Of a DNA stretch of 64,000 nt, positions 980-50,367 are shown in pieces. The DNA lies in contig CM059432.1 in assembly GCA_030390025.1 (NCBI GenBank), positions 22,446,001 to 22,510,000 of the forward strand, in the 5' to 3' direction. Origin of the DNA: Squalus acanthias (lineage: Eukaryota). The translations under genes and the position numbers were made by a program. Position 1 is the stretch's first letter; each line of letters starts with the position of its first letter. The notes below the pieces were generated by a model. It searched no databases, was not told where the DNA came from, and worked only from the letters and a program-made list of their open reading frames with translations.

Positions 980-1659
980 GCTTGGCAGCAAAATGGATTC
1001 ACAGGTCTCTCCAGGCCGAGATTCAAGGCTGCAATGAGCAGGGTGTGGCTGGGGAGCAAGTTGGCCCCCCCCGCTTTAAGAAGTGGCCGGCGCCAGTGTG
1101 TCTGTGTTCCCTCGCTAACTGGCAGCAGCTGCGCTGAGTTAGCGCCTCACTCCTTGGCCTTTGCGCCTTAAGACAGGTGTGCAGCGCCTGATTTAGCGCT
1201 CCACTCACCTCCCGGGGCGGTAAAAGTGAAGTTTCCAGTCAGTGCCGATAATTAGCGCCAGGCGCTAATATTTGCGTCCAGACGATATTTGCGCCCCAAA
1301 TGGGGCGCGACCTAATTTTTACCCCAATATTCCCACCATATTGTTTTGCACTCGATCCTGATTATTTGAAAGACCAGCGAAAGCTAATATCAGCAAATTA
1401 CATAGGATTATATAAGATATACGGCACAGAAACAGGCCATTCGGTTCAACCAGTCCATGCCGGCGTTTATGCTCCACACGACCCTCCTCCCGTCTTTCCT
1501 CATCTAAATCTATCAGCATAATCCTCTATTCCCTTTTCCCTCATATGCTTGTCTAGCCTAATCTCAACACGCTGTGGAGTTAAAACCTGGACCTTCCTGA
1601 CCAGAACTCCTCCCCCCGGCTTGGAAGTCCCACCACAGTAAAGATTGGGGCCCCATTCT

Positions 1660-4048
1660 GGGATGAGCTAAAATTTCCTTCAGTTAAATATTGGGAAACC
1701 AAAAGCCATGGTCTTTGCCCTTCACCACAAACTCTGTACCTTGGCCACTGGTTCCATTTTTCACCCCAGCCACTGTCTCATCTTGATCCAGACTGTTCAC
1801 AACCTCGGCGTCCTATTCGACCCCGAGCTGAGCTTCCAAGCCTACATCCTCTCCAACACAAAGGCTGCCTCCTTCCAACTCCGTAACATTGCCTACTTCC
1901 ACCCCTGCATCAATCCTTTTACTACTGATACCCTCATCCATGCCTTTGTCACCTCCAGGCTCAACTAGTCCAAAGCTCTCCTAGCAAACCTGCAATCTTT
2001 CACCCTCCATAAACGTCAGCTGATCCAATACTCTGCTGCCCGCATTCTATCCCACCAAGTCCTGCTCAATGGTCACCCCTGTCCTAGCTGACCTACGTTA
2101 GCTTCCGGTCCCCCATTGTCTCCAATTTAAAGTTTGTATCCTTCTGTTTAAATCTTTCCATGACCTCATTGATCTCTATCTCCTGTAATCTTCTTCAGTC
2201 CTACAATCTGCCCAGAACTTCTTCTTAGGCAGTCCCTCGGAACCGAGGATGACTTGCTTCCACACTAAAAATGAGTTCTCAGGTGACTGATGAGTCCAAT
2301 GCGGGACCTACAGTCTCTGTCACAGGTGGGGCAGACAGTGGTTGAAGGGGTGGGTGGGTGGGGTGCTTGGGTTGACGTGCGCTCCTTCCGCTGTTTGCGC
2401 TTGGCTTCCGCTTGCTCCCGGCGAAGAGACTCGAGGTGTTTGGCGCCTTCCCGGATGCTTCTATTCCACTTTGAGCAGTCTTGGGCCAGAGATTCCCAGT
2501 GGGGATGTTGCACTTTTTCAAGGAGGCTTTGAGGGTGTCCTTGAAGCGGTTCCTCTGCCGACCTGGGGCTCTCTTGCCGTGTCGGAGCTCCAAGTAGAGC
2601 GTTTGTTTTGGGAGTCTCGTATCGGGCATGCGGACGATGTGGCCCGTCCATCGGAGCTGATCGAGCGTGGTCAAAGCTTCGATGCTGGGGATGTTGGCCT
2701 GAGCGAGAACACTGACGTTGGTGTGCTTATCCTGCCAATGGATTTGCAGGATCTTGCGGAGGCAGCATTGGTGGTACCTCTCCAGTGCTTTGAGGTGCCT
2801 GCTGTACATGGTCCATGTCTCTGAAGCATACAGGAGGGCAGGAATCATTACTGCTATGTAGACCATGAGCTTGGTGCCGGGTTTGAGGTCCTAGTCTTCA
2901 AACACTCTCTTCCTCAGGCGACCGAAGGCTGCATTGGCAAACTGAAGGCGGTATTGGACTTCATCATCGACGTCTGTCCTTGTTGACAGTAGGCTCCTGA
3001 GGTATGGAAAGTGGTCCATGTTGTCCAAGGCCTCGTCATGGATTTTGATAATTAGGGCACAGTACTGTGTGGCGGGGGCAGGTTGGTAGAGGACCTTTGT
3101 CTTACGGATGTTTAGTGTAAGGCCCATGCTCTCGTACGCTTCGGTGAAGGTGTTGACGATGGTTTGGAGTTCGACCTCAGAGTGTGCGCAGACGCAAGCG
3201 TCATCTGCATACTGTAATTCGATGACAGAAGATGGGACGACCTTGGATCTGGACTGGAGGCGACGGAGGTTGAACAGTTTCCCGTTTGTTCTGTAAATTA
3301 GCTCCACTCCAGCGGGGAGCTTACTGAGGGTGAGATGGAGCATTGCAGCCAGGAAGATCGAGAAGAACGTTGATGCGATGACACAGCCTTGCTTGACCCC
3401 AGTCCGTACGTGAATTGGGTCTGTAGCGGATCCGTTGGTCAGGATCATGGTTTGCATGTCGTCGTGAAGCAGGCGGAGGATGATGACAATCTTTTGAGGG
3501 CAGCCGAATTTGCGGAGGACACTCCATAATCCCTCACGGTTGACAGTGTTGAAGGCCTTTGTGAGGTCAAAGAAGGCCATGTACAGCGGATGGTGCTGTT
3601 CCCTGCATTTCTCTTGTATTTGACGCGCAGTGAAGATCATGTCCATTGTGCCCCTTAGTGGGCAGAATCTGCATTGCAACTCTGGGAAGAGCTCTTCAGG
3701 CACTGGGAGAAGGTGATTGAGGAGGATTCTTGCTATGACTTTCCCTGTGGCAGCACTCTGTTCCTCTAACTCTTACCTCATGCATTACCCTCGCTTCACA
3801 CCAGTATTGGCATCCATACCTGCAGTTATCTATGGCCTATGCTCTTAGAAGTACCTTCATAAACCTTTCAACATCTCCACCTCCCTCTCCACCTTTAAAA
3901 CCCTCCTTAATCCCCAGCTCTTTTGATCACCCCTCTTAATATCTTCTTCTTTGGCTCGGAATCCACTTTTGACTGGGTATGCTTCAGTGAAGCACCTTGG
4001 TATGTTTATCTACGTTAAAGGTACTATATAAATGCAAGTTGCTGTTGT
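1660..4048 (+). mobile_element. Degenerate L2-type LINE 3' part, split by an RTE insertion
   Basis: ORF 1708-1968 has NLGVLFDPELSF...LIHAFVTSRLN (L2 RT C-terminus). The element resumes at about 3754 and ends with an ATAAATGCAAGTTGCTGTTG tail. Confidence 0.75.
2219..3752 (-). mobile_element. 5'-truncated RTE-clade LINE
   Basis: RT motifs FFDLTKAF, GVKQGC and LQYADD; C-terminal CPTC...HLRTH zinc finger; short (GAA)n tail; frameshifted. Confidence 0.9.
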
Positions 4049-5039
4049 ATAAGTCACTCTTGCAACACACAGATACACCTGTCTGAATACAGTGCCAGTT
4101 AAATTCAGGATGGAAAGGGTTAAGGCACAATTATCGGATTTAATGTCACTTGGAGTAAGGCATTCCATGATGAAGTGAAAATGTAACTTATCAGAATGAC
4201 ACTCAGTTTTAACATAAGATTTTAAGATTGATTTTTGGTGTCATGCTCAATAAAAGACATTCTATATTGTAAGACGATGAGTGATAGTTCAATATTTTAT
4301 TACTGATAATACTTTTTAAATAACCAAGGCTTCATGATACGTTATCCAATGTAAGGGATACCGGAAAAAGGATAATAAACTTTTGGATATGAAAGCAATA
4401 TGAAAAAAGTAATATTTTGGATTGGTTATTTATATATAGAATGGAATGTATTTATGTGCCATATGTAATATTTTGAATGAACTGATAAGTGATGTGTGAA
4501 TGCAGTTGTGAGCATGTCATGAGGCATCAAAATTAGCCATTGCTCTTCACTCCTGGAGAGCTGATTATGAACCCAAATCAGATCAAATGAATCTGACTGA
4601 AAACAGTCGAAGGGGAAATAAAACTGAGTCTGTTTTTAATACTTGGCTATTAATGTAAAATCAAATACAATATGTAGGATTAGAACCAACTTCCTCCATG
4701 CCTTTAAGTATGGTGCTGGTGGTAATGTGAGCATCCTCTGAATTATCAACTTATCGGATTTAATCCACAATGAGGACTTGGGAAAATGAAGAATATTGAT
4801 AGCTCTGGGTTGACTATCTATCATAATGTTAGTCAATTCAGAGTAATTTTCACCAGAGCTCCAACAGGGCTATTGTGAGAAAGTAGTAGTCAGCATACAG
4901 CCAAAGGCAGTATATGTTAGCGGTATAAGGTCAGCTGATTTTTGACTGTTCAGAAGGCTTGGCTCTGTATAAACAATTTTCTTATGCTGTAAGTATAGGA
5001 ACAACAAAAACCTCATAAATCTATTTTGAGCTAAGCTGT

Positions 5040-7382
5040 AAGAACATAAAAACATAAGAAGTAAGAGCAGGAGTAGGCCATTCGGCCCCTCGAGCCTGCT
5101 CCGCCATTCAAGAAGATCATGGCTGATCATCGACCTCAACTCCACTTTCCCGCCCTGATCGCCATATCCCTTGATACCGCTAGAGTCCAAAAATCTATCT
5201 ATCTCAGCCTTGAATATACTCAAAGACTCAGCATCACAGCCCTCTGGGGCAGTGAATTCCAAAGATTCACAACCCTCTGAGTGAAGAAATTCCTCCTCAT
5301 CTCAATCTTAAATGGCCTACCCCTTATCCTGAGACTATGCCCCCTAGTTCTAGACACTCCAGCCAGGGGAAACAACCTCTCAGCATCTACCCTGTCAATC
5401 CCCCTCAGAATCTTGTATGTTTCAATAAGATCACCTCTCATTCTTCTAAACTCCAGAGAGTATCGGCCCATTCTACACAATCTCTCATCATAGGACAGCC
5501 CTCTCATCCCAGGAATCAATCTAGTGAACCTTCATTGCACCACCTCCAAGGCAAGTATACCATTCCTTAGATAAGGAGACCAAAACTGTGGACAGTACTC
5601 CAGGTATGGTCTCACCAAGGCCCTGTACAATTGTAGCAAGACTTCCTTACTCTTATACTCCAACCCCCTTGCAATAAAGGCCAACATGCCATTTGCCTTC
5701 CTTATTGCTTGCTGTACCTGCATGCTAGCTTTCTGTGTTTCTTGCACGAGGACACCAAAATCTCTCTGAACACCAACATTTAAAAGTTTCTCACCATTTA
5801 AAAAATATTCTGTTTTTCTATTCTTCCTACCAAAGTGAATAACCTCACATTTCCTTACATTATACTCCATCTGCCACCTTACTGCCCACTCACTTAGTCT
5901 ATCTATATCCCTTTGCAGACTCTTTGTGTTCTCCTCACAGCTTACTGTCCCACCTAGCTTTGTATCATCAGCAAACTTGGATACATTACACTCGGTCCCT
6001 TCATCCAGGTCATTAATATAGATTGTAAATAGCTGAGGCCCCAACACTGATCCTTGCGGCACTCCACTAGTTGCAGCCTGCCAACCTGGAAAAGATCCGT
6101 TTATCCCTACTCTCTGTTTTCTGTCCGTTAACCAATCCTCTATCCATGCTAATATATTACCCCCAACCCCATGAGCCCTAATCTTGTGCAATAATCTTTT
6201 TATGTGGCACCTTATTGAATGCCTTTTGGAAATCCAAATATACTACATCCACTGATTCCCCTTTATCTACCCTGCTAGTTACATCCTCAAAAAACTCTAC
6301 TAAATTTGTCAAACACAATTTCCCTTTCATAAAACCATGTTGACTCTGCCTAATCATGTTATGATTTTCTAAGTGACTTGATACCACTTCCTTAACAATG
6401 GATTCCAGCATTTTCCCGATGACCGATGTTAGGCTAACTGGCCTGTAGTTCCCTGTTTTTTCTCTCCCTCCTTTCTTGAATAGCAGTGTTACATTTGCAA
6501 CCTTCCAATCTGCTGGAACCATTCCAGAATCTAGGGAATTTTGGAAGATCAAACCCAATGCATCCACTATCTCTGCAGCCACCTCTTTTAGAACCCTAGG
6601 ATGTAGGCTGTCAGGTCCAGGGGATTTGTTGGCTTTTATTCCCATTAGTTTCTCTAGTACTTTTTCTTTACTTTTATTAGTTATGTCAAGTTCCTCACCC
6701 TTATTAGACCTTTGGTTCCCCACCATTTTTGGTATGCTTTTTGTGTCTTCTACTGTGAAGACAGATACAAAATATTTGTTTAACATTTCTGCCATTTCCT
6801 TATTCTCCATAATAATTTCTCCTGTCTCAGCCTCTAAGGGACCAATGTTTACTTTTGCTACTCCTTTTCTTTTTACATACTTGTAGAAACTGTTACAATC
6901 TGCTTTTATATTTCTTGCTAGTTTTCTCTCATATTCTATTTTTTCCCTTGTTATCAATTTTTTGGTCAACCATTGCTGGTTTCTGAAACTCTCCCAATCC
7001 TCAGGCTTACTATTATTCTTTGCAACATTATAAGCTTCTTCTTTCAATCTAATGCTATCCTTAACTTTTTTAGTTAGCCAAGGTTGGATCACTTTTCACG
7101 TGGAATTTTTGTTTCTCAATGGAATGCATTTTTGTTGAAAATTATTAAATATTTCTTTAAATGCTAGCCTCTGCATACCTTTTAATCTATTTTCCCAATC
7201 TACCTTAGCCAACTCGCCCCTCATATCTATGTAATTGGCTTTATTTAAGTTTAAGACTCTAGTTTCGGACTTAGGCAAGTCACTCTCAAAATTAATGTAA
7301 AATTCTATCATATTATGATCACTCTGCCCCAGAGTATCCTTTACTATGAGATTGCTAATTAACCCTGTCTCATTACACAATA
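5040..7382 (-). mobile_element. 5'-truncated CR1 LINE (ORF2 remnants and 3' UTR)
   Basis: SDHN, NYRPVSLTS, YLDFQKAF, GVPQGSVLGP and KFADD motifs; CR1 3' UTR with a microsatellite-like tail near 5040-5060. Confidence 0.95.
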
Positions 7383-36321: not shown

Positions 36322-37359
36322 ATTAATTTTTAGCTTCTACCTGTTAACTGAGTTTCAATGTTCAGTTTAGTCAGTGGGAATTAAAAGTTGTATCAGTCAG
36401 AGACAGTCTTTAGATGAGAAGAAATGACAAAAAAGCTGTCTTTGTTAGCTCCAGCCTTTTAAAGTTACCTGCCTGAGAACTGGAAAATTAGGGTGGGTAA
36501 CCAAACAGGGGAGTCTGATTTGTGTGCTGCAAGAACAGGGCAATCAAATCAGTGTTGAATGATGAATGTGGATTAGGTTATGTCAAATCATGTGGATTCC
36601 CAAATAGCCAGGGTGGGGGAAAAGAAGCCTTAAAAGCAGGGGTGTTTGGAGAGATATCTCAGAATTTAATGAAGCCTGATTAGCTCAAGAACGTGTGAAT
36701 TCTCCGGTGAACTCATAATGTATCACCATAAGTGGAGATGAGGTAGTGTGAATGAATAAGCCATATTCAGAAAAATACACCATTCTATGAAATAATTCTG
36801 GCCTTATTGTAACATGACAAACTGGGCTTGAAAATCTAAAAACCTAACAATGGAAAAGCTGTAAACAGCATACAGGCTATTGAGATAAGATAACCTTATT
36901 GAAACAGGAGGTTGGAGGTTCCTGAAAGTCTGAAGCTTTGGAAAGAACCCAATGGTACACCCTGTTAAGGTGTCCTAAATTACACTTTGGAAAGAAACAC
37001 AGAAAATTAAGAAACATATGCCTTCGTAAAAATGACATCAAATGAAACACAGGAGACATGATTTTGTGTTGCAACCAGCTGAGGTAACAAAGAAGACAAT
37101 GGTGCACCCAGTTGAGGTGTTTTAATATACACGTCGTAAAAAGACACAAACAGAAGACCTTGGTAAAATGACATCCAATAGATGCATCTGCTGTCAAACC
37201 GTTTTATGGTAAGCTTTGAACACCTAAGGGTAGAGACATGAGTCTGGATTGCTACCAGCTGAACTGACTGTAAGAATAGCAGGGGTCAGCAGAAAAATGA
37301 CTAGAGATAATTAGCTTACATCAACAGAAAACTTCAAAAGAAATGCCACTGAGAAAGGA

Positions 37360-37367
37360 TATAAATA
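37360..37367 (+). promoter_or_regulatory. LTR TATA box
   Basis: TATAAATA conserved in both LTRs (second copy at 44607) and upstream of the donor and polyA signal. Confidence 0.7.
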
Positions 37368-37439
37368 TTGAACTTTCAAATGGGATGATAGTCTCGCTGT
37401 AAATGAGCAAAGCGATTCTCGGCTTCAGAGGCAAGCTCT

Positions 37440-37445
37440 GTAAGT
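37440..37445 (+). promoter_or_regulatory. Putative major splice donor in R
   Basis: CT|GTAAGT about 80 nt after the TATA box, present in both LTRs (second copy at 44687). Confidence 0.65.
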
Positions 37446-38005
37446 CTACAACTCTTTGTACCTTGGGGATCAAAAAGGTACTGTATTTGATTTTGGTGGA
37501 TATCCTGGAATAAGACTAAGATATGTAAAAATGTAACGAAGTTAAGATTTGAGAATAAGGATCTCTGATAATAGAATTGTAAGATTTCTGTTTTTGGAAC
37601 TGTTAATGTTGCGATTGAATCACGAACTGTAAATTACATGTTGGTTCTTTAATAAATCTATATATTTTTAGAATTGTCTCACAAAATACTTCTGTATCAA
37701 ACTCGCGAACTCAATCTCTGTACGCGCTTTGGTGAGGAGTTGCAGAATTCTGGGGGAGTTTTCCGGACCCTCTTAATATCTGGAATGTTACAGTCTAGCT
37801 AAACTTATTAAAAGTGCTATCTGGAGGGCGGTAACATCTTCAGGTTGTTCCTTTCCTTTAGGGAGAGATAGTCTGGACCTTCAGACCCAATTAAGCATCT
37901 TTAGGATTCGGCTACCTCAAACTTTAGTTGAAAGTGAACGTCTGAGGAATACACCTGATCCGGGGTAGCCCTAAAGGGGCTAGGACTAGTAATTATCCCT
38001 TCAGT

Positions 38006-38023
38006 TGGTGCCCAATGTGTGTG
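38006..38023 (+). promoter_or_regulatory. Primer binding site, tRNA-Lys1,2 type
   Basis: TGGTGCCCAATGTGTGTG begins 2 nt after the LTR. Against TGGCGCCCAACGTGGGGC, the first 14 nt differ only by two CpG-to-TpG changes. Confidence 0.85.
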
Positions 38024-38134
38024 TTAACAAGTTGATACCGAACCTATACTTATATTTATATCTATATCCATCTTGTAGATTGTTAAGTATAGAAGGAGTG
38101 TTTTACTGACAGACCCAGATTTAAGTCTCTAGAG

Positions 38135-39808
38135 ATGACAAGTCCCTGATCAGGCCTTGTAGAACTTAACTCAGAACTCCCTCAATATGCCATTGAGGTC
38201 TAGAAATTTCTTATAAAGTTCATATTAAACCCTAACCGAGGTTAGGTCCTGACGAAGTGGCAAACCCTGTCAGAATTGGCCAAGTCTTTTTATTCGGAAA
38301 TTCAAACGATTGCTTTATTAGGGGAAATAATCCTATCCCTGTACCTCCACAAAACCAAGTGATATTTTTTTAAATAGAAGGCTTTGATGCCGACGGACCA
38401 TTAGAACTCATGGCATGATTGATGTTGATCCCCAGAACCAGGGGATACAAAATATCCAGTGGGATAATCAAACAAATACTCCAAATCCACTAAATTCCTT
38501 AATGATAAGGTGCACACCCGCACAATTGGGAGGCCTAATGAACAATGCCCAACAAGGTGGTGGCAACCATGGCCGAATAATAGGACCCGGAGCAGCCTAT
38601 GCTCCCGAGGCCATGGATTCCGGTTAAGGTGGCAAGCTCATGATAAAATAAATGACCAGAATCTTCGAGAAAACTATAGACAGCTTAGAATCCATTATAG
38701 TCAATGCCGACAGGCACTAGCTCAATCTTATCTAAATGCTGGAGGCGCAATGATTACTGGTCCAGTAAGCCAACCCCAGCAACCAAACCTGAGCTCTATC
38801 TACACAATGTGTGGTAGACCGGGCAACATCAGCCAGGAAAAAACCTGCTGGATTCTAACTAACCTTGATAAATTGGAAACCTGTTGCCAAGATTGGAATG
38901 CCCAACACCTGAGGCAACTACTACAAATGATACTAAGTTCAGACTTAATTCCCCCATTAAACCAGTGTAACAACTGGGTTCAAATATATGCCTATGTTCT
39001 CATGGCAACTCAGGGAGGGCATGTAATGGGTTCCATCAAGGAAATACTCACTAATACAGCCACAACTAAAGGGCTGGTAGCTGCCTACAGATTAGGCAAA
39101 GTACTTACACAGGATAACTGGGACATTGTCCATGGTTGCCTGGCCAATCAATACCAAAATACAGCCCTCAAACTTGCCTGTGAGGGTGCTCTAAAAGATT
39201 ATCGAGATAACCAACAAAGATGGGATAATGTCAATCGCATTATCCAATTAAACCATGACCTCTTAGGTCTACCCTAAACTAAACCTATAATGAAATCAGA
39301 AACTAGGGATAAAAAAACCGGAGAAGGTACCTTTGGTACTCAGAAACAAGGACTGTATAGACCCAAGTCTCAAGTCCACCCCGCCCAGACACAAACTCGT
39401 GGCTCGGGACTCCCAAGATGGTATTCCAGAAGGATTACACCCCCAACTCGCCCACAATACGAGAAAGATTTCTCCCTGGAAAGATGGGATAGACGAGGGG
39501 CTAGACCTCGAAAGGAAAGCGAAGGACAGTGGACTCCCTATGGGGACAGCTTTTACACTGGCCAAAACTATCAGAGAGCCATGGGAGGATACCGGGAAAA
39601 CCGAAATGGGGATCAAAAAGATTCCCAGCAGAACCAACGTCCACCCCAACAGGAGGATCGTCAAGATAATAAACGGTCTGACAAAACCCCTCAGGGATTT
39701 GGAAAACATGATACCCCCAAGAGGGAGGAACAAAAATCAATTAAAATAATTAAAGACAAAGCAGCAAATGAAACTCAGGATCCTGAGGATGAACAATCCC
39801 AGGATTGA
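38135..39808 (+). pseudogene. gag: Foamy-type Gag (disrupted; start uncertain)
   Basis: GLVAAYRLGKVLTQDNWDIVHG and HDLLGL align by eye with foamy capsid GVATAYTLGMMLSGQNYQLVSG and YEILGL; Arg/Gly-rich C-terminus; no CCHC knuckle; in-frame stop at 39275-39277; disrupted 5' part. Confidence 0.8.
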
Positions 39809-42800
39809 AGGCCTGGCACCCAGCCAGGGCCTCTTGAATTCCCCTATGCCCTGGCAACCTTGCCCACAAACACACAAGTGAAGGCCCTGTTTGATACAGG
39901 AGCTGATTACACTGTAATAGATCCTGCAATTATAAAAACTAAGTGGAAAGATTTGGGGAGCCCAATTTGTAAAAGACCATTAGGGGGATTCACACAAGAC
40001 AAAACCAAAATAATTAATTTTTACAAAATACCTATTACTATATATGGAATCACGGTGACCCTAGATGTAGGACTGATACCACAATTGGCCTGTTCCCTCA
40101 TTATAGGACAACCAGACATGAAACATTACCTTAAAATCTCAACCAGACCTGTAGAAGCATCCACAGACCAGGATGACAGGGAAAAACATGTTCGGACACA
40201 GCTTGATCGAACTTGCCTAGAGGGGGGAGGCAAAGACCTCCTCGAGCAACTCATTAATAGATACTACCCTTATCTACAACGCCATCCAAATCAATGTGGA
40301 AAGATAGACATCAAATCCCACCCACTTGATGCTGGCTGGAATAAACCTAAAAAACAGTGGTCTATTCAAGATCACAAAGGAAAAATCGATCTCCTAACAA
40401 CGCTCAAAGAACTAACAGAACAAGGTATCTTAATCAAAATGGCATCTAGAACTAATTCACCATTGTTTGGTGTTGCTAAACCAGATGGGAGGTGGAGATT
40501 AGTGGTCGATTCTACAGCCTTAAATAGGGTAACGGCCCCACATACTGCACAACAACAAAATTCCACAGCCTTTCTCTCTGGAATCACGAGGGAAAAATAT
40601 AAATCTTGTATTGATCTAGCAAACGGCTTCTGGACACATCCAATCGAAAAAGCTGATTGGCCAAAAACAGCGATGACTGGACCCGATGGTTATCAGTACT
40701 GCTGGACCAGATTGCCCCAGGGATTTCAAAACAGCCCCGTTCTCTTTTCAGCCCACATCATTGACCTTTTAAAAGACCTACCTAACGTCAATTCTTATGT
40801 GGACGATATATATCTGTCACATGACAATCTCCAAGAGCACTTGAAAGCCATTGATAGTGTTTTATCCAGACTTACAGCTGCTGGGCACTTAATCAACATA
40901 AAAAAGAGTCAACTAGTTAGGGAAGAGGTAGATTTTCTGGGCCTGCGACTAACTGGAAACGGTAGAGGATTAACTCAATCCTATAAAGAAAATTTAGCCA
41001 CCATTCAATATGCTAAAGCTCTGAAAAATCTGCAAGCAAGTTTAGGACTCCTGAATTTTGCTCGATCCTTTACGCCAACCTTTGCCGAGCTCTCAGCCCC
41101 CCTGTATGCTAGAGTGGGCGAAGCAGCAAAAGGACCATTCATATTTTCACCAGATGATTACTCAAAATTGCAACAATTATGCCGAGAGGTACAAAAAGCC
41201 ATAGACCTGGAACAGAGGGACTTACACGTTCCCCTCAATATTCATCTCAGGTCATCACCTAAAGTGACAGTTGCAGTTTTCTATAATGAAAAGAGTATAG
41301 TGCCCTTTCAGTTCCATTCTTATAACTTTTCCAATGTTGAAAGGAGGTACATGAAAAAGAAAGGGACATGACTATGGTAGTCCAATGCCTCATCAAGGCA
41401 CGAACCCTTCAAGGGAAATACCCCATTACCATCTATACTGAGATTCCCAATTTAAGATCAGTATTGAGGATGACCTCTGATGAAAAAAGAGCCACCCAGA
41501 TCCGATATGATAAATGGGCATCGTTCTTGAATGATCCTACACTCATTTTTAAATTCCTCTCCCCAGAAATGGACTTAGAGCATCTCCCCATCATGGACGA
41601 TGATGATACGAAGGAGGGAATCAGACAAATACCTATGAGACCGCTTACAGAGTACCATCCAGTCATTTACTGTGATGGATCTTCAATGACAATTAACAAA
41701 GGGACATCCCAACAATCCTCAGCTGGGACGGGGATAGTAGTAGGGACTTTTCGAGATTCCTATTCTTTTTATCCAGAAGTATTACTGTTCATACCCCTTG
41801 ACCATAAGACAGCACAATATGCTAAAGCCGCAGCATTACGACATGCTTTAGAAAAGGCAGACCCTATTAAACCCACATTAATCTGTATGGATAGTGACTA
41901 CTGTAAAAGAGGATATAACCAAGATCTAGTTTTCTGGGAACAAACAAATGTTACCAATCATAAGGGTAAACCCATAAAACATAAGTCATTGTGGGAAGAC
42001 ATTCTCCATTCGAGAATGGAGAAACAGAATTGTCAGGTGATTCATGTAAACGGGCATACCACTGGGACAGTACATTCAAAAGGAAACAGTCATGCAGACG
42101 AACAAGCAAAACGTTCGGTCTGCATGACACCTCACTAGGGCAGAATGGGCAGCTAATCAGGATGAGGAACTGATTCAGCTATTAGACCCAACAAAAGAGA
42201 ATCCACCAGGATATCCACCAAAGTACTTTTACTCAGAAACCCCTACGGGTATTGTGCCAGTTAAGTTGCCCAAGGGAAACCGAGAAGTACCCCCGAGACA
42301 CAAACGAGAACAGCTTGTAAAAGTAGCTCACGAGGGCATAGGTCAAGCACATTGTGGTTCCAGAACAACATTCTGCAAATTGACCCCCTTATATTGGTGG
42401 CCAGGCATGCTTAAGGCCTGTAAAACATACGTGGCAAATTGTGAGCCATGCTATTTAACCAATAAGTCATCACTAATTAAGCCACCACCATTGGCTCCTG
42501 TGAAAGCTGATGAGCCAATGGGGAAATTCTTTATTGACTTTATTGGACCACTTCCCCCATCTTTGGGATACACAGATGTTCTTGTTTGTGTAGATGGATG
42601 CACTTGCTTCTGCTAGCTGGTCCCCACAAAAACTGTTTTGGAAAACGCACTCGCCAATGCTATTACTGACATAATTACTGGAGCTGGTGCACCCAAAATC
42701 TTAGACTCCGATCAAGGCAGAGCCTTTGTCTCCAAGGTCTTCAAAGACTACTGCGAACAAAGGGGGATTGGGTTAGAGCACAGCACGCCACATCATCTGC

Positions 42801-43606
42801 AATCAGCGGGGCTGGTGGAATGTAAAAACCAGGAAGTAAAAAAGCTATTGGTCAAACTGTTGAGAATCAGGGGAAGCAAGTGGACCACCGTCATTCCGGA
42901 GGTGCAGCTATCACTTAATAATGTGCCCGCATCTGCATCAGGGACAGTGTCCCCTAAAACTCCATGTTATCTAATGAATGGGGTTGAGATGCATACACCG
43001 CTTACCCATAGTTCTTTTATTGCCTCTACACACTCTGAGTCCTTGACCCGGCAGCGACAGTTAGATTTTTAAAAAAAAGTAACAGAGGAGATTCATCAAA
43101 TTGATCAGAGGATAAGGGAGGCAAATAGGCAGAAAAAATTGACAAACAAAGCATGGCAACCCCTAGCAGGAGAATGGGTACAGGAAAAGAAGTTCGAGCA
43201 AAAACCTGGTTTAAGACTGAAGTGGAAAAAACCTGTTCAAATACATTCTGTTATTAACGAAAGAACAGTTAAATGACATATTAATCAGCCGAATAGCAAG
43301 CATATTCGTAAAACTGTCTCCATAGAGAATCTCAAAAGATGTCCTGCGAGATACCGAAATGGAGGAATAATACAAGGTGCAGTCGTACACTGTCTTTCAA
43401 GACCCAGCTTGGAGCACGACACAGGAAATGAATGCAATCGAATTACTGACGATGGTCAGTCAGACGGTGTCGCCGACTCCTCCACACGATGCTTGGCAAC
43501 ACCTCAGGAATTGGATTCACGAAAAGCCACAACCGAAACAAGGCAAGATCAACGCGTTACTTCAACGAAGGAGGAAAACACTGTGGATGAAGAAGGAATC
43601 AACTGA
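39789..43606 (+). pseudogene. pol: Foamy-type Pol: protease-RT-RNase H-integrase (disrupted)
   Basis: PR LFDTGAD; RT KPDGRWRLVVD, DLANGFWTHPI, LPQGFQNSP and YVDDIYLSHD (40796); RNase H YCDGS...GNSHAD; IN N-terminal extension [31 protein letters not shown], and C-terminal TVSIENLK. Frameshifts near 41360 and 42120; stops at 42614, 43070 and 43274. Confidence 0.95.
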
Positions 43607-43685
43607 GCGCCTGGCAAGGCCTTTACGAAAACAAGAATCTGTCCACACGCTGGATCGAAGGAACAGCGTGTCAAGCTTCAGCTAG
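43359..43685 (+). pseudogene. env: Putative env leader-peptide remnant
   Basis: ATG in the +1 frame inside the pol 'NG' codons just after TVSIENLK, the same position as the env start in prototype foamy virus; stop at codon 4; no SU or TM follows. Confidence 0.5.
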
Positions 43686-43983
43686 TTCCAAATGACGTCT
43701 CCTTGACTCATATGAATAACTCACATCTACGGAACGTACATCTGCTGATTGTCCATTCTAAGTACATGTTGTTTTGCGAATTGCATGACAATGTACATAT
43801 CGCCCGTTTAAATTGTGTTCAATTTAAAATAAGGCAAAACATTGTCCTAGGATGACTTAAAAGGAATTTTTCATGTAGCACATGATTAGGCTTTTATGAA
43901 TTTCTTGACATTAATGTGCTATTGTAACCTTATTAGTAACATTGACCAAACTCTGTCTAGATGCTCGAGTTCATTTTTTGGTC

Positions 43984-43992
43984 AGAGGGGGG
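43984..43992 (+). promoter_or_regulatory. Polypurine tract
   Basis: AGAGGGGGG directly abuts the TG of the 3' LTR and is preceded by a T-run. Confidence 0.85.
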
Positions 43993-45234
43993 TGTGAAGG
44001 AATAAGCCATATTCAGAAAAATACACCATTCTATGAAATAATTCTGGCCTTATTGTAACATGACAAACTAGGCTTGAAAATCTAAAAACCTAACAATGGA
44101 AAAGCTGTAAACAGCATACAGGCTATTGAGATAAGATAACCTTATTGAAACAGGAGGTTGGAGGTTCTAAAAGTCTGAAGCTTTGGAAAGAACCCAATGG
44201 TACACCCTGTTAAGGTGTCCTAAATTACACTTTGGAAAGAAACACAGAAAATTAAGAAACATATGCCTTCGTAAAAATGACATCAAATGAAACACAGGAG
44301 ACATGATTCTGTGTTGCAACCAGCTGAGGTAACTAAGAAGACAATGGTGCACTCAGTTGAGGTGTTTTAATATACACATCGTAAAAAGACACAAATAGAA
44401 GACCTTGATAAGAATGACATCAAATAGATGCATCTGCTGTCACACCGTTTTTATGATAAGCTTCGAACACCTAAAGGTAGAGACATGAGTCTGCATTGCT
44501 ACCAGCTGAACTGACTGTAAGAATAGCAGGGGTCAGCAGAAAAATGATTAGAGATAATTAGCTTACATCAGCAGAAAACTTCAAAGGAAATACCACTGAG
44601 AAAGGATATAAATATTGAACTTTCAAATGGGATGATAGTCTTGCTGTAAAGGAGCAAAACGATTCTTGGCTTCAGAGGCAAGCTCTGTAAGTCTACAACT
44701 CTTTGTACCTTGGGGATCAAAAAGGTACTGTATTTGATTTTGGTGGATATCTTGGAATAAGACTAAGAAATGTAAAAATGTAACGAAGTTAAGATTTGAG
44801 AATAAGGATCTCTGATAATAGAATTTAAAAATTTCTGTTTTTGGAACTGTTAATGTTGCGATTGAATCACCAACTGTAAATTACATGTTGGTTCTTTAAT
44901 AAATCTATATATTTTTAGAATTGTCTCACATAATACTTCTGTATCAAACTCGCAAACTCAATCTCTGTACGCTCTTTGGTGAGGAGTTGCAGAATTCTGG
45001 GGGAGTTTTCCGGACCCTCTTAATATCCGGAACGTTACAGTCTAGCTAAACTTATTAAAAGTGCTATCTGGAGGACGGTAACATCTTCAGGTTGTTCCTT
45101 TCCTTTAGGGAGTGATAGTCTGGACCTTTAGACCCAATTAAGCATCTTTAGGATTTGGCTACCTCAAACTTTAGTTGAAAGTGAACGTCTGGGGAGTATG
45201 CCTAAAGGGGCTAGGACTAGTAATTATCCCTTCA
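43993..45234 (+). repeat. 3' LTR (1242 bp)
   Basis: Direct repeat of the 5' LTR with about 45 substitutions (manual count), a few 1-nt indels and a ~17-bp deletion in U5; AATAAA at 44898-44903. Confidence 0.97.
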
Positions 45235-45321
45235 GTAGAAGATCAGCCATGATCTTATTGAATGGTGGAGCAGGCTCAAAGGGCCAAATGGCCTACTCCT
45301 GCTCCTATTTCTTATGTTCTT
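45235..45321 (+). mobile_element. CR1 3' UTR fragment that is the proviral integration target (left part about 36731-36746)
   Basis: The joined flanks read GTGGAGATGAG-GTAG-AAGATCAGCCATGATC...TTCTTATGTTCT, matching the CR1 3' UTRs near 11880 and 50200. Confidence 0.8.
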
Positions 45322-45574
45322 AAGTGTGCTGTTAAATGTATGTGCAATTATTATCAAATATAATTACCACTGTATGCTTAATATTCAGTGTATAGCAACA
45401 ATAAATGCTTTGGAACTCTATTATTTTGACGAGTAAATTATAAACTTATAATAAGAACAGCCATCATCTAACGTAAGGCAGAACAGGTGGATAAAGACTA
45501 TAGATTATAGGATGAAGGAAAGACTGAGGAAGGGAAGAAACTCTCCGGGCTGGAGGAGATACTGGAGCAGCTTA

Positions 45575-46190
45575 GAATCATAGAATCATAGAAAGTTACA
45601 GCACGGAAGGAGGCCATTTCGGCCCATTGTGTCCGCACCGGCCAACAAAGAGCTATCCAGCCTAATCCCCCTTCCCAGCTCTTGGTCCGTAGCTCTGCAG
45701 GTTAGAGCATCCCAAGTGCACATCCAAGTACTTTTTAAATGTGTTTAGGGTTCCTGCCTCTACCACCCTTTCAGGCAGTGAGTTCCATACTCCCACAACC
45801 CTCTGGGTGAAGAAATTTCCTCTCAAATCCCCTCTAAACCTTCCACCAATTACTTTAAATCTGTGCCCCCTGGTTTTTGACCTCTCTGCTAAGAGAAATA
45901 GGTCCTTTCTATCCAATTTATCTATGCCCCTCATAATTTGATACACCTCAATAAGGTCTCCCCTCAGCCTCCTCTGTTCAAAGGAAAACAGACCCAGCCT
46001 ATCCAGTCTTTCCTCATAGCTAAGATTCTCTACTCCCAGCAACATCCTTGTAAATCTCCTCTGTACTCTCTCTAGTGCAATCACATCTTTCCTGTAATGT
46101 GGTGACCAGAACTGCATGCAGTACTCTCGCTGAGGCCTAACTAGTGTTTTATACAGTTAGAGCATAACCCCCCTGCTCTCGTATTCTATG
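45575..46190 (-). mobile_element. CR1 3' fragment
   Basis: QFWSPHYRKD...FFTQRVVGVWNSLP; (CATAGAAT)n tail. Confidence 0.9.
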
Positions 46191-48369
46191 CTTGTTTAGA
46201 TGTATTGTGGTGCACCTTTAAATAAGAATAAAATAATAATTTCTGCAGTCAATTGGAAAGCAAAAAGACTCTTCATTACTCAATTGGATGATTCTTGACT
46301 ATCAGTCAAACAGCCTTATCCCATCTCCAATATTTTTATAACTAATACACAGAAGTGTTCAAAGAAAATGAAAAATCACTATGTTTTTTAACGACCCAAT
46401 GATTTTTCTCCTGGGTTACTCGTAGCAGTGCCCTGGAGATTAATCTTCAATTGCTGTAGCCTCCAGGCACATCTGGAGGGTTGGCACCCTAGATGAGGTA
46501 CTGGAGGGCTGTTGTCTGCCATAAGTCATGAACAGGACCATCGTTTTACAGAGACTGACAAAGTCATGTTCCATTTTTGCTACATGGCATTCCTGGAATT
46601 TTATCTATGTTTTGAAATGACATCTCGCGATACCTTCTGTTTATAATCAGGCTGAATGTTTTATACTGGCTGAATGATTTTTTCATCATGAGGGGTTACC
46701 AGATTTTATGGGGGGGTGGGGTGGGGGAAAGGGTTATTGGAGATCGTATTTTGGATTTCAACCCATTTTTGTGTGAAAACTGTGGCCTTCTTCATGAAAC
46801 TCTACCTCTAGAAAAGGGAGGGAGGAAGCGAGGGGAAGGAAATTGGAAAAATAATTGGTTGGGGATTTTAAACTTCTATTTAATTGAACAGAACTATTTA
46901 CTCCAGTGGAGATGACGAATGTCCACTTGCTGTTGCCAAGGATGTAGTTTGAAGCTAGAAATCACAAGCAGATTATATGGTATATGTTCCTGTATCTCAG
47001 ACTTTATGAACCTTTGCAAGCAATACAACCTTCTTAAATAGATCTCCGTTCCTTCATCGTCGCTGGGTCAAAATCCTGGAACTCCCTACCTAACATCCCG
47101 TGAATGAATTAAAAAAATTGAATTTTAATGATAGTCAAGGAAGAACAGATCAGTTGCAGGAAAATTGGTGTTTGTCACCGACCTGTTGTGAAGTGAGGGG
47201 TGGGGGGGGGGGGGGGGGCAGGGGAAGGAGTGGGGGTGCATGTGCGATGAACCATCATGGGCTTATTTAGTTCTGAGCCAGTGGACACGCCTTCGGCCAA
47301 AGCAAAGGAAGATGAATGGACAATGTTATTTGACGGGATGGCACTGAACCCATTTCTCAGTTGCCTGGACAAACCATGTGCATCTTAATGAGCTTTCAAT
47401 TCATCACTTATTCCATGCTTCACACTGCAGACTCGCCACAGTTCTGTTGAGGTTGGGAGTGATTTATAGGCACAATTCAGGCTAAATCAAAGGATGCAGC
47501 TAGCAATGAAAAGATTAGAGAACACATTGTGCAAAATTTAAAACCCAGACAGATGGGAGACACTCAGTTCTGTTTCGACACTTTCCCCACCCCCAGTTCC
47601 CGAGACACATATACATACGTGCACATTCACACACATATGCACGCACTCACACACACACACAAACTCACACGCACCAATGCCATATGCATGGGCTTTAAAG
47701 GGGCAATAATTGGAATGCTGTCTGTGAATTTATTTTCCAATCATAATGCTGCAGAAATAAATGGCTGGTTCTGGAAAAGTGACTGAAATTAACGAACTGT
47801 GCATTAAGCTTTCTAAAGGTATGATTTGTTTTGAAAGTTGAAAAACTTTATTAGATTGGTTACCTCCACAGAGGCTTCAGTCGTGAACAACCCAGCGTAT
47901 GTGAAGCGACTAGAAATGAGGGAGCTTTGCAAAGCTGCAGTACCATGGGCTGCCATTACATCAGCCCTCCCTTTCTAATATGGTAACTTTTGATAATTGC
48001 AGAGTCCCAAGCACAGGCCAGGGACTAGACTTGGCTGTCGGACTAGCACTTGTCTAAAAAGGATTTAGTTTTCTCTTTGTTTCCTTCACTTTTCTACCAA
48101 CCTCTCCGTAAGGGGCTGACATTAAGGAGGATGTTTGCGCGTGGACCCTCTGGCACCTCACCCAGTTGCCCATTCTTAGTCATGCGCCAACTTAGTAGTG
48201 AGTGTCAGCAGGCTATTTCATACTAGGGAGTATCATATACAGTTGTATCGGCTGTAGCAGATATTCTTTACATTGCCCAAGTAGCCATTCTTCATTTATA
48301 AACCACGAGCGTGAGTGTTGGCAGGCTATCTTACCACAAGAGTCTCCTCCTGCCATCCAGGCACACATA

Positions 48370-50367
48370 GGCCTGGATTTTAGCCTGGAGGCAAGTTCTG
48401 TGCGGAAGGGGGTGGGGGGGAGTCGGGGGGGGGGGGGAGGCTGTTGTGAAGTCAGGAATCCTGGAAGAACGGGTTTCCTGAATGTCCTGCAGAATTTAAC
48501 TGCAGGGCTGCTTCAGATTTTTTTCTGTGGGGTTCCCGCCCACAGGCAGCCTGATTTCGGGTGGGAAGCCTGCTTCACAAGGCCGAAGCCTTCAACAGCA
48601 GGTAGGTGTATTGGGGGAGTGAGAGGGATTGTGAGGGGGTGGGGGGGGTCTGGATTGCGGGGGAGGTCTGATGGTGGTCCGGGGTTCCGATCATGGTGGG
48701 GGGATCCGATGGGGGTCTGGGGGCTCCTGATTGTGGGTAGGTAGTTCATTGGTGGTCCGGGGGGTCCCGATCGTGTGGGGGTCCGATGGTGGTCCAGAGA
48801 TCCCGATTGTGGGGGGGGTCCGATGGGGGTCTGGAGGCTCCTGATTGCGGGTAGGGAGTTCATTGGTGGTCCGGGGGGTCCCGATCGTGTGGGGGTCCGA
48901 TGGTGGTTCAGAGATCCCGATTGTGGGGGGGGGGGGGGTCCAATGGTGGTCCAGGGGGGTCCTTTGGTAGTCAGGGGAGGCCTGATGGTGGCCAAGGGGC
49001 CCAATGGTGGTTGGGGAGGTCTGATGGTGGTTGGGAGGGGGGGGGGGGTCCAATGGTGGGAGGAGCAGACAGATCGTGGTGGGCACTTTACTGGGTAGCT
49101 TGTTGGGCTGAGAGGAAGCACTTCTGTTCCTCCTGGCCCATAAGCAGTGCAGTAAAGGGACTTACCTCATGGATTCAACTCTTTTCGCCCCCTTTAAGCT
49201 GCTGAGTTTCCCGAGACATGGGAACCCCTGCCGATATGAGCTAAATATAGAATGACTGTTAAAATGAAGATGGGCCGTTTCATTATTATAGTTAAATGAC
49301 CAACTGCTTCCCTCGAGCAGGTTGGTTGCCTGCCCCTTATCCCGCCTCCATTAAAACCAGAAGTGGCCAGGTTCGGCTCCTGTTCTCCAAGTTTGCAGAC
49401 GACACAAAGCTGGGTGGGTGTGTGTGTTGTGAGGAGGATGCAGAGAAACTCCAGTATGATTTGGACAGGTTGGGTGATTGGGCAGATGCATGTGGTAAAT
49501 GCGAGGTTATCCACTTTGCTGGCAAAAACAGGAAGACAGATTATTATCTGAACGGCAATAGATTGGGAAAAGGGGAAGTGCAACGAGACCTGGGTGTCCT
49601 TGTGCACCAGTCGCTGAAGGTAAGCATGCAGGTACAGCAGGCGATTAAGAAGGCAAATGGTATGTTGGCCTTCATAGCGAGAGGATTCGAGTACAGGAGC
49701 AAGGATGTCTTGCTGCAGTTGTACAGGGCCTTGGTGAGACCACACCTTGAGTATTGTGTGCAGTTTTGGTCGCCTTATCTGAGGAAGGATGTTCTTGCCA
49801 TGGAGGGAGTGCAGCGAAGATTCACCAGACTGATACCTGGGATGGCAGGAATGACGTATCAAGAGAGATTGGGTTGATTGAGCTTGTAGTCACTCGAGTT
49901 TAGAAGAATGAGAGGGGATCTCATAACAGGACTAGACAGACTAGATGCAGGAAGGATGTTCCCGATGGCGGGGGAGTCCAGAACCAGAGGTCACAGTCTA
50001 AGGATAAGGGGTAAGCCATTTAGGACTGAGATGAGGAGGAATTTCTTCACCCAGAGAGTGGTGAACCTGTGGAATTCTCTACCACGGAAGGCAATTGAGG
50101 CCAATTCATTAAATATATTCAAGAATGAGTTAGATATATTTCTTAAGGCTAAAGGGATCAAGGGATATGGGGAGAAAGCAGGGACAGGGTACTGAATTTG
50201 GATGATCAGCCATGATCTCATTAAATGGCGGAGCAGGCTCGAGGGGCCGAATGATCTACTCCTGCTCCTATCTTCTATGTTTCTATGTTTCTATGTTCCA
50301 GATTTTTTGCATTTTAACCTCTGACACGACCCCAACCCACCCGTTTTTGGTACTTAAGATTCAGCCC
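48370..50367. mobile_element. MITE-like element (family of 14295-15048) with an internal 114-bp tandem duplication and a nested CR1
   Basis: Same termini as the 14295 copy; G-rich CCGAT repeats with units at 48706 and 48820. Confidence 0.75.
49385..50298 (+). mobile_element. 5'-truncated CR1 nested in a MITE
   Basis: SKFADDTKLGG...FFTQRVVNLWNSLP; (TTCTATGT)n tail. Confidence 0.9.

Follow-up and report, generated by a model that had tools for sequence, protein, structure and literature searches.

How did an endogenous retrovirus (ERV) of Squalus acanthias make its Pol protein, when pol lies directly behind the stop codon of gag, in the same frame and with no start codon ahead of the protease active site? 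The production of Pol separately from Gag is the textbook trait by which foamy viruses differ from every other retrovirus, and the element considered here is built like a foamy virus elsewhere and like a readthrough retrovirus at its gag-pol junction. It lies in a stretch of 64,000 nucleotides (contig CM059432.1 of assembly GCA_030390025.1, positions 22,446,001 to 22,510,000, forward strand), which we call the window and whose first letter is position 1 of all the coordinates below; every feature described is on the + strand. The junction sits in a complete provirus without env (36747-45234), foamy-like and decayed, that is, a dead copy. We consider that its Pol was most probably made by readthrough of a UGA codon into a Gag-Pol fusion, and we give this reading, the best of those weighed, a probability of roughly 0.72.

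The gag frame is open from 39278 to 39805 and closes at the TGA at 39806-39808 (context UGA-AGG), the candidate readthrough codon. The same frame then remains open for 520 codons as pol (39809-41368). The catalytic aspartate of the protease (DTG, within LFDTGAD; 39893-39895) is codon 29 past the stop, and the earliest ATG of the pol frame is codon 104 (40118), 75 codons beyond this aspartate. Since residue 3 of the simian foamy virus (SFV) Pol aligns at 39830, the whole N-terminus of the protease is located past the stop, and the start methionine of foamy Pol maps to about codon 6 past it, where neither an AUG nor a near-cognate codon is present. Between gag and the protease motif, the junction then has a single in-frame stop and offers no alternative start. 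On these letters, we agree with an earlier, sequence-only reading of the window, which had described pol in the gag frame behind this TGA with no in-frame ATG before the protease active site. The same reading had named a slippery frameshift site as a junction that would speak against it. A single X-XXY-YYZ site occurs in 39500-39960, at 39594, and none near the junction; a -1 frameshift is rejected, as the junction has no slippery heptamer and no shift of frame is needed.

The state of this junction in related copies can be followed in public sequencing runs, of which twenty (8 studies) contain part of the interior of the element, at most 44% of its words. Four of them, X1, X3, X4 and X17, from organisms A, B, C and F respectively, were aligned to 39180-40020 at a likeness of at least 85% and with a threshold of 5% of depth, giving 692, 1268, 1226 and 5 aligned contigs. 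The first three are DNA-scale, and X17 is RNA by software guess, its 5 contigs having depths of 3-7. Substitution results cover the 40 listed of 113 rows, each listed row attaining 41% of depth or more in one or more runs under an unstated ranking rule, and the indel table is complete. None of the listed substitutions falls in 39766-39850, where the three DNA-scale runs have depths of thousands; this variant-free stretch is not significant by itself (p 0.31 as the largest gap, and p 0.09 for 39806-39850). In X1, there is no majority difference at 39806-39808. The indel table has two rows only, which are remote from the junction (39318 and 39641), and no inserted letter reaches 5% of depth anywhere in the aligned region in any of the four runs. 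Among the 29 listed contigs (there are 3168 others), five extend across the stop, by at least 31 letters in either direction. Three of these are gapless though about 10% diverged (39715-39886 and 39733-39854 in X1, 39715-39939 in X4), two have lost 1 and 2 letters net, and none shows a net gain.

Two controls bear on these results. The premature gag stop at 39275 is private to our copy: in the three large runs, the related copies differ from it in 98%, 100% and 98% of depth. Private places of this kind number about 13 in 841 nt (1.5%), which is half the divergence of the long terminal repeats (LTR). The CGA codons at 39494 and 39510 are decayed in about 1% of depth in X1, as against 28-55% in X3 and X4; because this decay is so low in X1, that run would reveal a TGA that came from a sense codon by decay after insertion. 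Apart from its use as a control, this sharp contrast in CpG decay between runs points to a younger burst of the family in organism A. Differences between runs outside CpG sites, at 39608 (0%, 65% and 53%) and 39765 (X4 only), indicate several master lineages, all of which retain the stop. The comparison of related copies, which the sequence-only reading had proposed, shows that in-frame gag-TGA-pol, with no extra nucleotide, is the majority state of a multi-copy family in four organisms, minority variants aside; variants at the stop itself, if present, would be in the minority.

The foamy-like nature of the element rests on several of its parts. The top matches of its Pol are foamy-virus Pols (36-42% identity, E 1e-83 to 1e-92), the next ones being at E 5e-57 or weaker, and the 520-aa frame has 36-38% identity to foamy Pols over 95-98% of its length in five of six matches. 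The protease-reverse transcriptase (PR-RT) region aligns to the foamy Pr125Pol structures with E 2e-92, as against only 5e-26 for the RT of murine leukaemia virus (MLV), and a protease of the A9 type is found at its N-terminus (PF03539, E 2e-6, above the cut-off). Gag (38415-39808) matches PF20672, Gag_FV_central (E 9.9e-15), and its last 176 aa form a tail rich in arginine and glycine (19% of residues), in which no Cys-His (CCHC) box was found. In an RT tree of 17 rows, six foamy-virus Pols form the sister group of the element, with a support of 96/97; this tree holds no foamy-like rows from fish, amphibians or coelacanth and no ERV-L rows, and it carries a long-branch warning. The RT grouping, the Gag type, the A9 protease, the tRNA-Lys primer-binding site (PBS), the long LTR and the 4-bp target-site duplication (TSD) are all those of foamy viruses. 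What is missing is a separate pol open reading frame (ORF) with its own AUG, an in-frame TGA being found in its place here and in the majority of relatives. Since this feature was looked for and is absent, we class the element among the foamy-like ERVs rather than calling it a strict foamy virus. Among 203 candidates from a protein search with the protease region, none is a close relative; another search gave one uninformative fragment of 81 aa with 43% identity, and scans of viral, metagenome and prokaryote contigs gave no relative. One retrovirus-like PR-RT fragment (P0017) carries the label of a metagenome-assembled genome of Cetobacterium; its source is probably host DNA that entered a bin from fish gut.

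In the mechanism that we favour, ribosomes would read through the UGA at 39806-39808 on the unspliced RNA to yield a Gag-Pol fusion, from which the viral protease would then cleave Pol near the C-terminus of Gag. About 22 residues before the stop, the Gag tail carries the residues S-I-K-I-I (39731-39760), which loosely resemble the foamy p3 cleavage motif VXXV (PMC8278194; here and below, what is said of published work refers to the parts of the papers at hand). It could be a candidate site for freeing Pol from the fusion. An engineered foamy Gag-Pol fusion retains RT activity (PMC3705302), and the UGA-AG-N context is found at the in-frame gag-pro stops of SSSV (salmon swim bladder sarcoma virus; UGAAGA) and of a frog/toad ERV (UGAAGU), where readthrough is itself unverified (PMC13517186, section 4.1.2). 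The pol gene was full length at insertion, which suggests that it was still in use at that time.

With less confidence, we propose that RNA structure 3' of the stop would aid this readthrough; this structure is a lead and not a result. The hairpin to which the sequence-only reading had drawn attention (39809-39832) does fold as drawn, with pair probabilities of 0.71-0.98 in the free RNA and an energy of -14.5 kcal/mol. Taken alone, it is within chance (z -1.66, 12 of 200 shuffles being as good), and because it begins right at the stop, with a spacer of 0 nt, it is probably not the working signal. The conserved TGA that the same reading had associated with readthrough does fit the family data, so that this part of it stands, readthrough itself remaining an interpretation. 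Longer folds past the stop moderately beat their shuffles (39806-39930, z -2.34, 1 of 200; 39806-40010, z -2.42, 2 of 200), and among 103 windows of 90 nt along gag-pol, two at the junction rank first and third by energy, the better one being eighth by z. Two other pairings appear as better candidate stimulators, according to the folding models. The first is a GC-rich stem of 8 bp, pairing 39823-39830 with 39848-39855 (39823-39855 as a whole), 14 nt past the stop; its probability is 0.56 (0.41 for the long helix) when the stop and 8 nt are held open and 0.97 when the stop and 12 nt are, and the only listed variant in its arms (39851) retains pairing as G-U. The second is a long-range helix of 12 bp, including one G-U, whose 5' arm (39835-39846) lies in the loop of the 8-bp stem and starts 26 nt past the stop; its probability is 0.94 in the free RNA, alongside the hairpin at 39809-39832. 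Its 3' arm (39981-39992) also encodes the LGGF of the protease, so that its conservation is not independent evidence. A ribosome at the stop would melt the adjacent hairpin, and the RNA would refold into the 8-bp stem, which could compete or combine with the 12-bp helix, the partner of which is about 150 nt farther downstream. Of the six strongest helices in the 6-kb interior, three start at most 40 nt from the gag TGA, and none does so for five other stops; three such helices lie ahead of 28 of 5734 positions, and at least one ahead of 172 of 5734 (3%). Before the stop, another hairpin (39779-39806) pairs the first base of the stop codon (probability 0.94) and contains an ATG of the +1 frame, at 39789.

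A number of points weigh against readthrough or its proposed stimulation. Concerning the RNA, one GC-rich arm is common to the three strong helices, and the energy cut-off was set after they had been seen. Known readthrough stimulators begin 7-12 nt past the stop and the leaky UGA context has C as the next base (PMC3159437); the spacers of 0, 14 and 26 nt fall outside this range, and the base after the UGA is A. An Rfam scan of 39700-40100 gave two chance-level matches only, no compensatory two-sided change is seen in the helices among the listed variants of copies at least 85% alike, and the listed variant at 39883 (10-47% of depth) disrupts the outer stem of an alternative fold. Concerning the related copies, the listed 40 of the 113 substitution rows leave room for stop variants below about 40-50% of depth, and the detection of insertions has the bridging contigs as its only positive control, no insertion being listed anywhere. 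The copies are all at least 85% alike by setting, hence the conservation is shallow. The selection test on pol is not significant: of 24 polymorphic places, 11 are third positions (p 0.14), as are 9 of the 18 outside CpG sites (p 0.11), and 3 of 5 changes in the pol part are silent in a hand reading. Finally, it is from the layout of the junction only that readthrough is deduced.

The alternative that survives best, unlikely as it is, sees the in-frame TGA as the mark of a lineage with a silent pol, dependent on a helper and copied in trans, the autonomous virus having another junction and being rare among the copies. Such a lineage would agree with the internally deleted derivatives that are common in the family, as seen from the loose ends of mapped contigs, and with the non-significant third-position test. 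What speaks against it is the state of pol, which is of full length (39830-43363), keeps both DTG and YVDD, and has about five breaks, in line with a decay of 1.5% after insertion; moreover, runs from three organisms, with distinct master lineages, have the TGA as their majority state.

Slightly less probable is a Gag-independent Pol made from a spliced mRNA, in which an exon with an upstream AUG would be joined to an acceptor past the stop, for instance the AG at 39822-39823, which is in pol phase. The 3' splice site that foamy viruses use for pol is suboptimal (PMC3705302), and in our element a phase-0 CAG stands just ahead of the residues that align to the N-terminus of foamy Pol. The AGs past the stop have weak pyrimidine tracts (share 0.41-0.47, with 230-295 of 407 AGs as pyrimidine-rich or more), and even the AG at 39822-39823, with a share of 0.47, is equalled or beaten by 230 of the 407. 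Foamy pol acceptors sit within gag, upstream of pol's own AUG (PMC3705302); in this element the stop excludes such an arrangement, and a spliced pol message of the foamy type cannot work. No joint or loose end falls at 39809-39830 among those listed (there are 104 others, and the RNA-like run, with its few shallow contigs, is weak in this respect). There is no usable donor after the +1 ATGs either: an intron leading from them into pol is rejected, as the only GTs, at 39878 and 39889, are too near the catalytic aspartate.

It is improbable that Pol began at a non-AUG codon past the stop, by reinitiation or internal entry. The pol frame does offer AGG (codon 1), CTG (codon 15), TTG (codon 18) and GTG (codon 24) as near-cognates, and foamy-like elements of teleosts have stop-start overlaps between gag and pol, of 1 nt in a cichlid element and 4 nt in a killifish element (PMC5512871). 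A start at codons 15-24 would remove most of the 23 residues that foamy proteases have before the catalytic aspartate, and codon 15 is variable between copies. As for codon 1, AGG is a very poor start codon.

Still less likely is a pol in the +1 frame, starting at the ATG at 39789 or 39768 and having lost one base in this copy alone, as the sequence-only reading had suggested when it restored a C at the junction. That reading had noted the ATG at 39789, which is indeed present, and had missed a second one in the same frame, at 39768. This short +1 ORF (39768-39881) has no Pfam match and closes at the TGA at 39879-39881, after 37 codons from 39768 or 30 from 39789, and it does not join pol, here or in the majority of related copies. 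This copy does carry other private breaks, and in the newt element NviFLERV-2 pol is in the +1 frame and overlaps gag by 125 nt (PMC5512871). The family data largely refute such a loss: as detailed above, inserted letters are absent from the four runs at the 5% threshold, and the three gapless bridging contigs and the lack of any net gain among the five go the same way. ATGs are common in this frame (5 in the 528 nt of 39278-39805), so that the one at 39789 is no more than expected by chance. Lastly, the idea that gag and pol were once a fused ORF, the TGA being a sense codon decayed after insertion, finds some basis in the CpG decay to TGA that reaches 31-55% at 39494 in X3 and X4, and is dismissed on the absence of a majority difference at 39806-39808 in X1, where such codons are decayed in about 1% of depth.

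With readthrough retained as the best explanation of the junction, the element can be set beside known systems. In mammalian foamy viruses, Pol is translated from an AUG of its own on a spliced mRNA, and a Gag-Pol protein is never produced (PMC3705302, PMC9143442). The exogenous foamy viruses, namely prototype and simian foamy viruses (PFV/SFV) and bovine foamy virus (BFV), share with our element the type of Pol and RT, the central domain of Gag, the A9 protease, the lack of a Cys-His box, the Lys-type PBS, the long LTR and the 4-bp TSD. It differs from them in that pol is in frame behind a stop with no AUG before the active site, and in the absence of env and accessory genes. NviFLERV-2, AciFLERV and AliFLERV are of the same overall kind and have 4-bp TSDs, with a Lys-type PBS in the two teleost elements; their pol is a separate ORF in another frame than gag, according to the frames that we computed from the published coordinates (PMC5512871). 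Teleost gag and pol have been called independently transcribed (PMC5210030).

A second same-frame case may be the catshark element ERV-Spuma.0-Sca, which also has a cartilaginous-fish host and belongs to the foamy clade according to its authors (PMC10699275, Table S4). By coordinates only, its annotated gag (1538-3796) and pol (3920-6865) share a frame, a point on which we found no remark in the parts of PMC10699275 at hand. It is of another family, with an LTR of 866 nt and an env, it is grouped with teleost elements, and its pol may have a usable ATG of its own, 123 nt past the gag stop. XtERV-S of Xenopus tropicalis, a class III element, has an in-frame TGA between gag and pro-pol, for which readthrough was proposed, and it lacks a Cys-His box as well (PMC8278194). 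Unlike ours, it is ERV-L/ERV-S-like and, per its authors, not particularly foamy-like, and there too readthrough is a proposal. In epsilon- and ERV-L-like frog ERVs, gag and pro-pol are also in the same frame (bioRxiv 2024.07.05.601823).

One in-frame stop between gag and the DTG motif is likewise found in Moloney MLV (MoMLV), walleye dermal sarcoma virus (WDSV), SSSV, the zebrafish element ZFERV, a toad ERV and snakehead retrovirus (SnRV), the UGA-AG-N context being common to SSSV, the toad ERV and our element (PMC13517186). MoMLV differs by its UAG, its purine-rich spacer of 8 nt and its compact H-type pseudoknot, features that all lack a counterpart here (PMC13517186). Gamma- and epsilonretroviruses are far from this Pol, as the E-values given above for MLV RT and foamy PR-RT indicate. 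The 12-bp helix resembles the stems of 10-12 bp that close loops of 100-150 nt at the UGA readthrough sites of alphaviruses and tobraviruses; those stems lie 7-12 nt past a UGA-C and show covariation, whereas ours starts 26 nt past a UGA-A, with none seen (PMC3159437). Nothing on the gag-pol junction was found in the available parts of PMC3386198, PMC6955096, PMC7947760, PMC8227577 and bioRxiv 2020.12.18.423569. Searches of the full-text literature yielded no foamy-like element using readthrough; a 2022 paper on an endogenous foamy virus of cartilaginous fish, which may treat the present family, lay outside these searches, so the novelty is provisional.

The remainder of the provirus is as follows. 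A 4-bp TSD (36743-36746 on the left and 45235-45238 on the right) flanks the 5' LTR (36747-38003; TG...CA, 1.26 kb, with a TATA-like motif at 37360 and an AATAAA at 37651) and the 3' LTR (43993-45234). The two LTRs differ at 40 of 1243 aligned columns (Kimura two-parameter distance 0.033, that is, 3.3% apart), and with the rate assumed for the catshark in PMC10699275, 0.5e-9 per site per year, this gives a rough insertion age of about 33 million years. The PBS (38006-38023) is of the tRNA-Lys type, as in foamy viruses, and decayed; 13 of its first 14 letters are those of the AliFLERV tRNA-Lys PBS printed in the supplement of PMC5512871. Besides its premature stop at 39275, gag has a frame change near 38625, which is deduced. 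The foamy-type pol (PR-RT-RNase H-integrase, 39809-43606) has frame changes near 41355 and in 42110-42160 and stops at 42614, 43070 and 43274. The polypurine tract is at 43983-43992. An open stretch of 104 codons overlaps the end of pol where env would start (43371-43685), and with a short ATG-started frame it occupies 43359-43685. It has no Pfam or Atlas match and may be the remnant of an Env leader or of an accessory gene. A search for env gave no Env match, only about 390 nt separating the end of the pol frame from the 3' LTR, and neither an internal promoter nor accessory genes of the foamy type were found in the provirus; env and the accessory genes may have been lost by deletion.

The lowest z values of the element (-4.3 and -3.7) belong to two perfect hairpins in its RNase H-integrase region, at 42089-42128 (11 bp) and 42488-42521 (10 bp). 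The 3' part of pol is where foamy viruses have elements for packaging and for the encapsidation of Pol. Other copies of the family carry deletions within gag, from 38696 to 39666 (969 nt) and from 38668 to 39596 (927 nt). Both are multiples of three, leave the N-terminus and the C-terminal tail of Gag in frame, and have short microhomology and no GT..AG. The first occurs both in X1, a DNA run, and in the RNA-like X17; it was rejected as a splice joint, as no cut yields GT..AG and it is present in a DNA run. One X3 contig joins 39732 to 42027, from late gag to the RNase H region, a gutted derivative without junction and RT. Around the provirus, fragments of LINE-like RT and SINE-like repeats (long and short interspersed elements) fill much of the window (45238-50300 and elsewhere), which also contains tandem repeats at 435-602 (54-nt unit) and 48698-48925 (114-nt unit).

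Readthrough of a stop codon is in itself a well-known mechanism, and the copy described here is dead. Its meaning lies in the group to which it belongs: it adds a candidate UGA readthrough signal from a group that is missing in a 2026 review of readthrough in animal viruses, in the available part of which neither "foamy" nor "spuma" occurs (PMC13517186). The separate production of Pol can be uncoupled from the foamy type of Gag and Pol proteins, and the in-frame UGA state either predates the switch to a Gag-independent Pol or reverses it. The timing of this switch becomes testable by placing the junction states of shark, teleost, coelacanth and amphibian elements on the Pol tree. We would only tentatively suggest that the foamy stem had readthrough as its ancestral state, in common with ERV-L-like class III elements and with gamma- and epsilonretroviruses. 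If this were true, Gag-independent Pol would have arisen later, and perhaps twice, once as the spliced +1 form of tetrapods and once as the stop-start overlap of teleosts.

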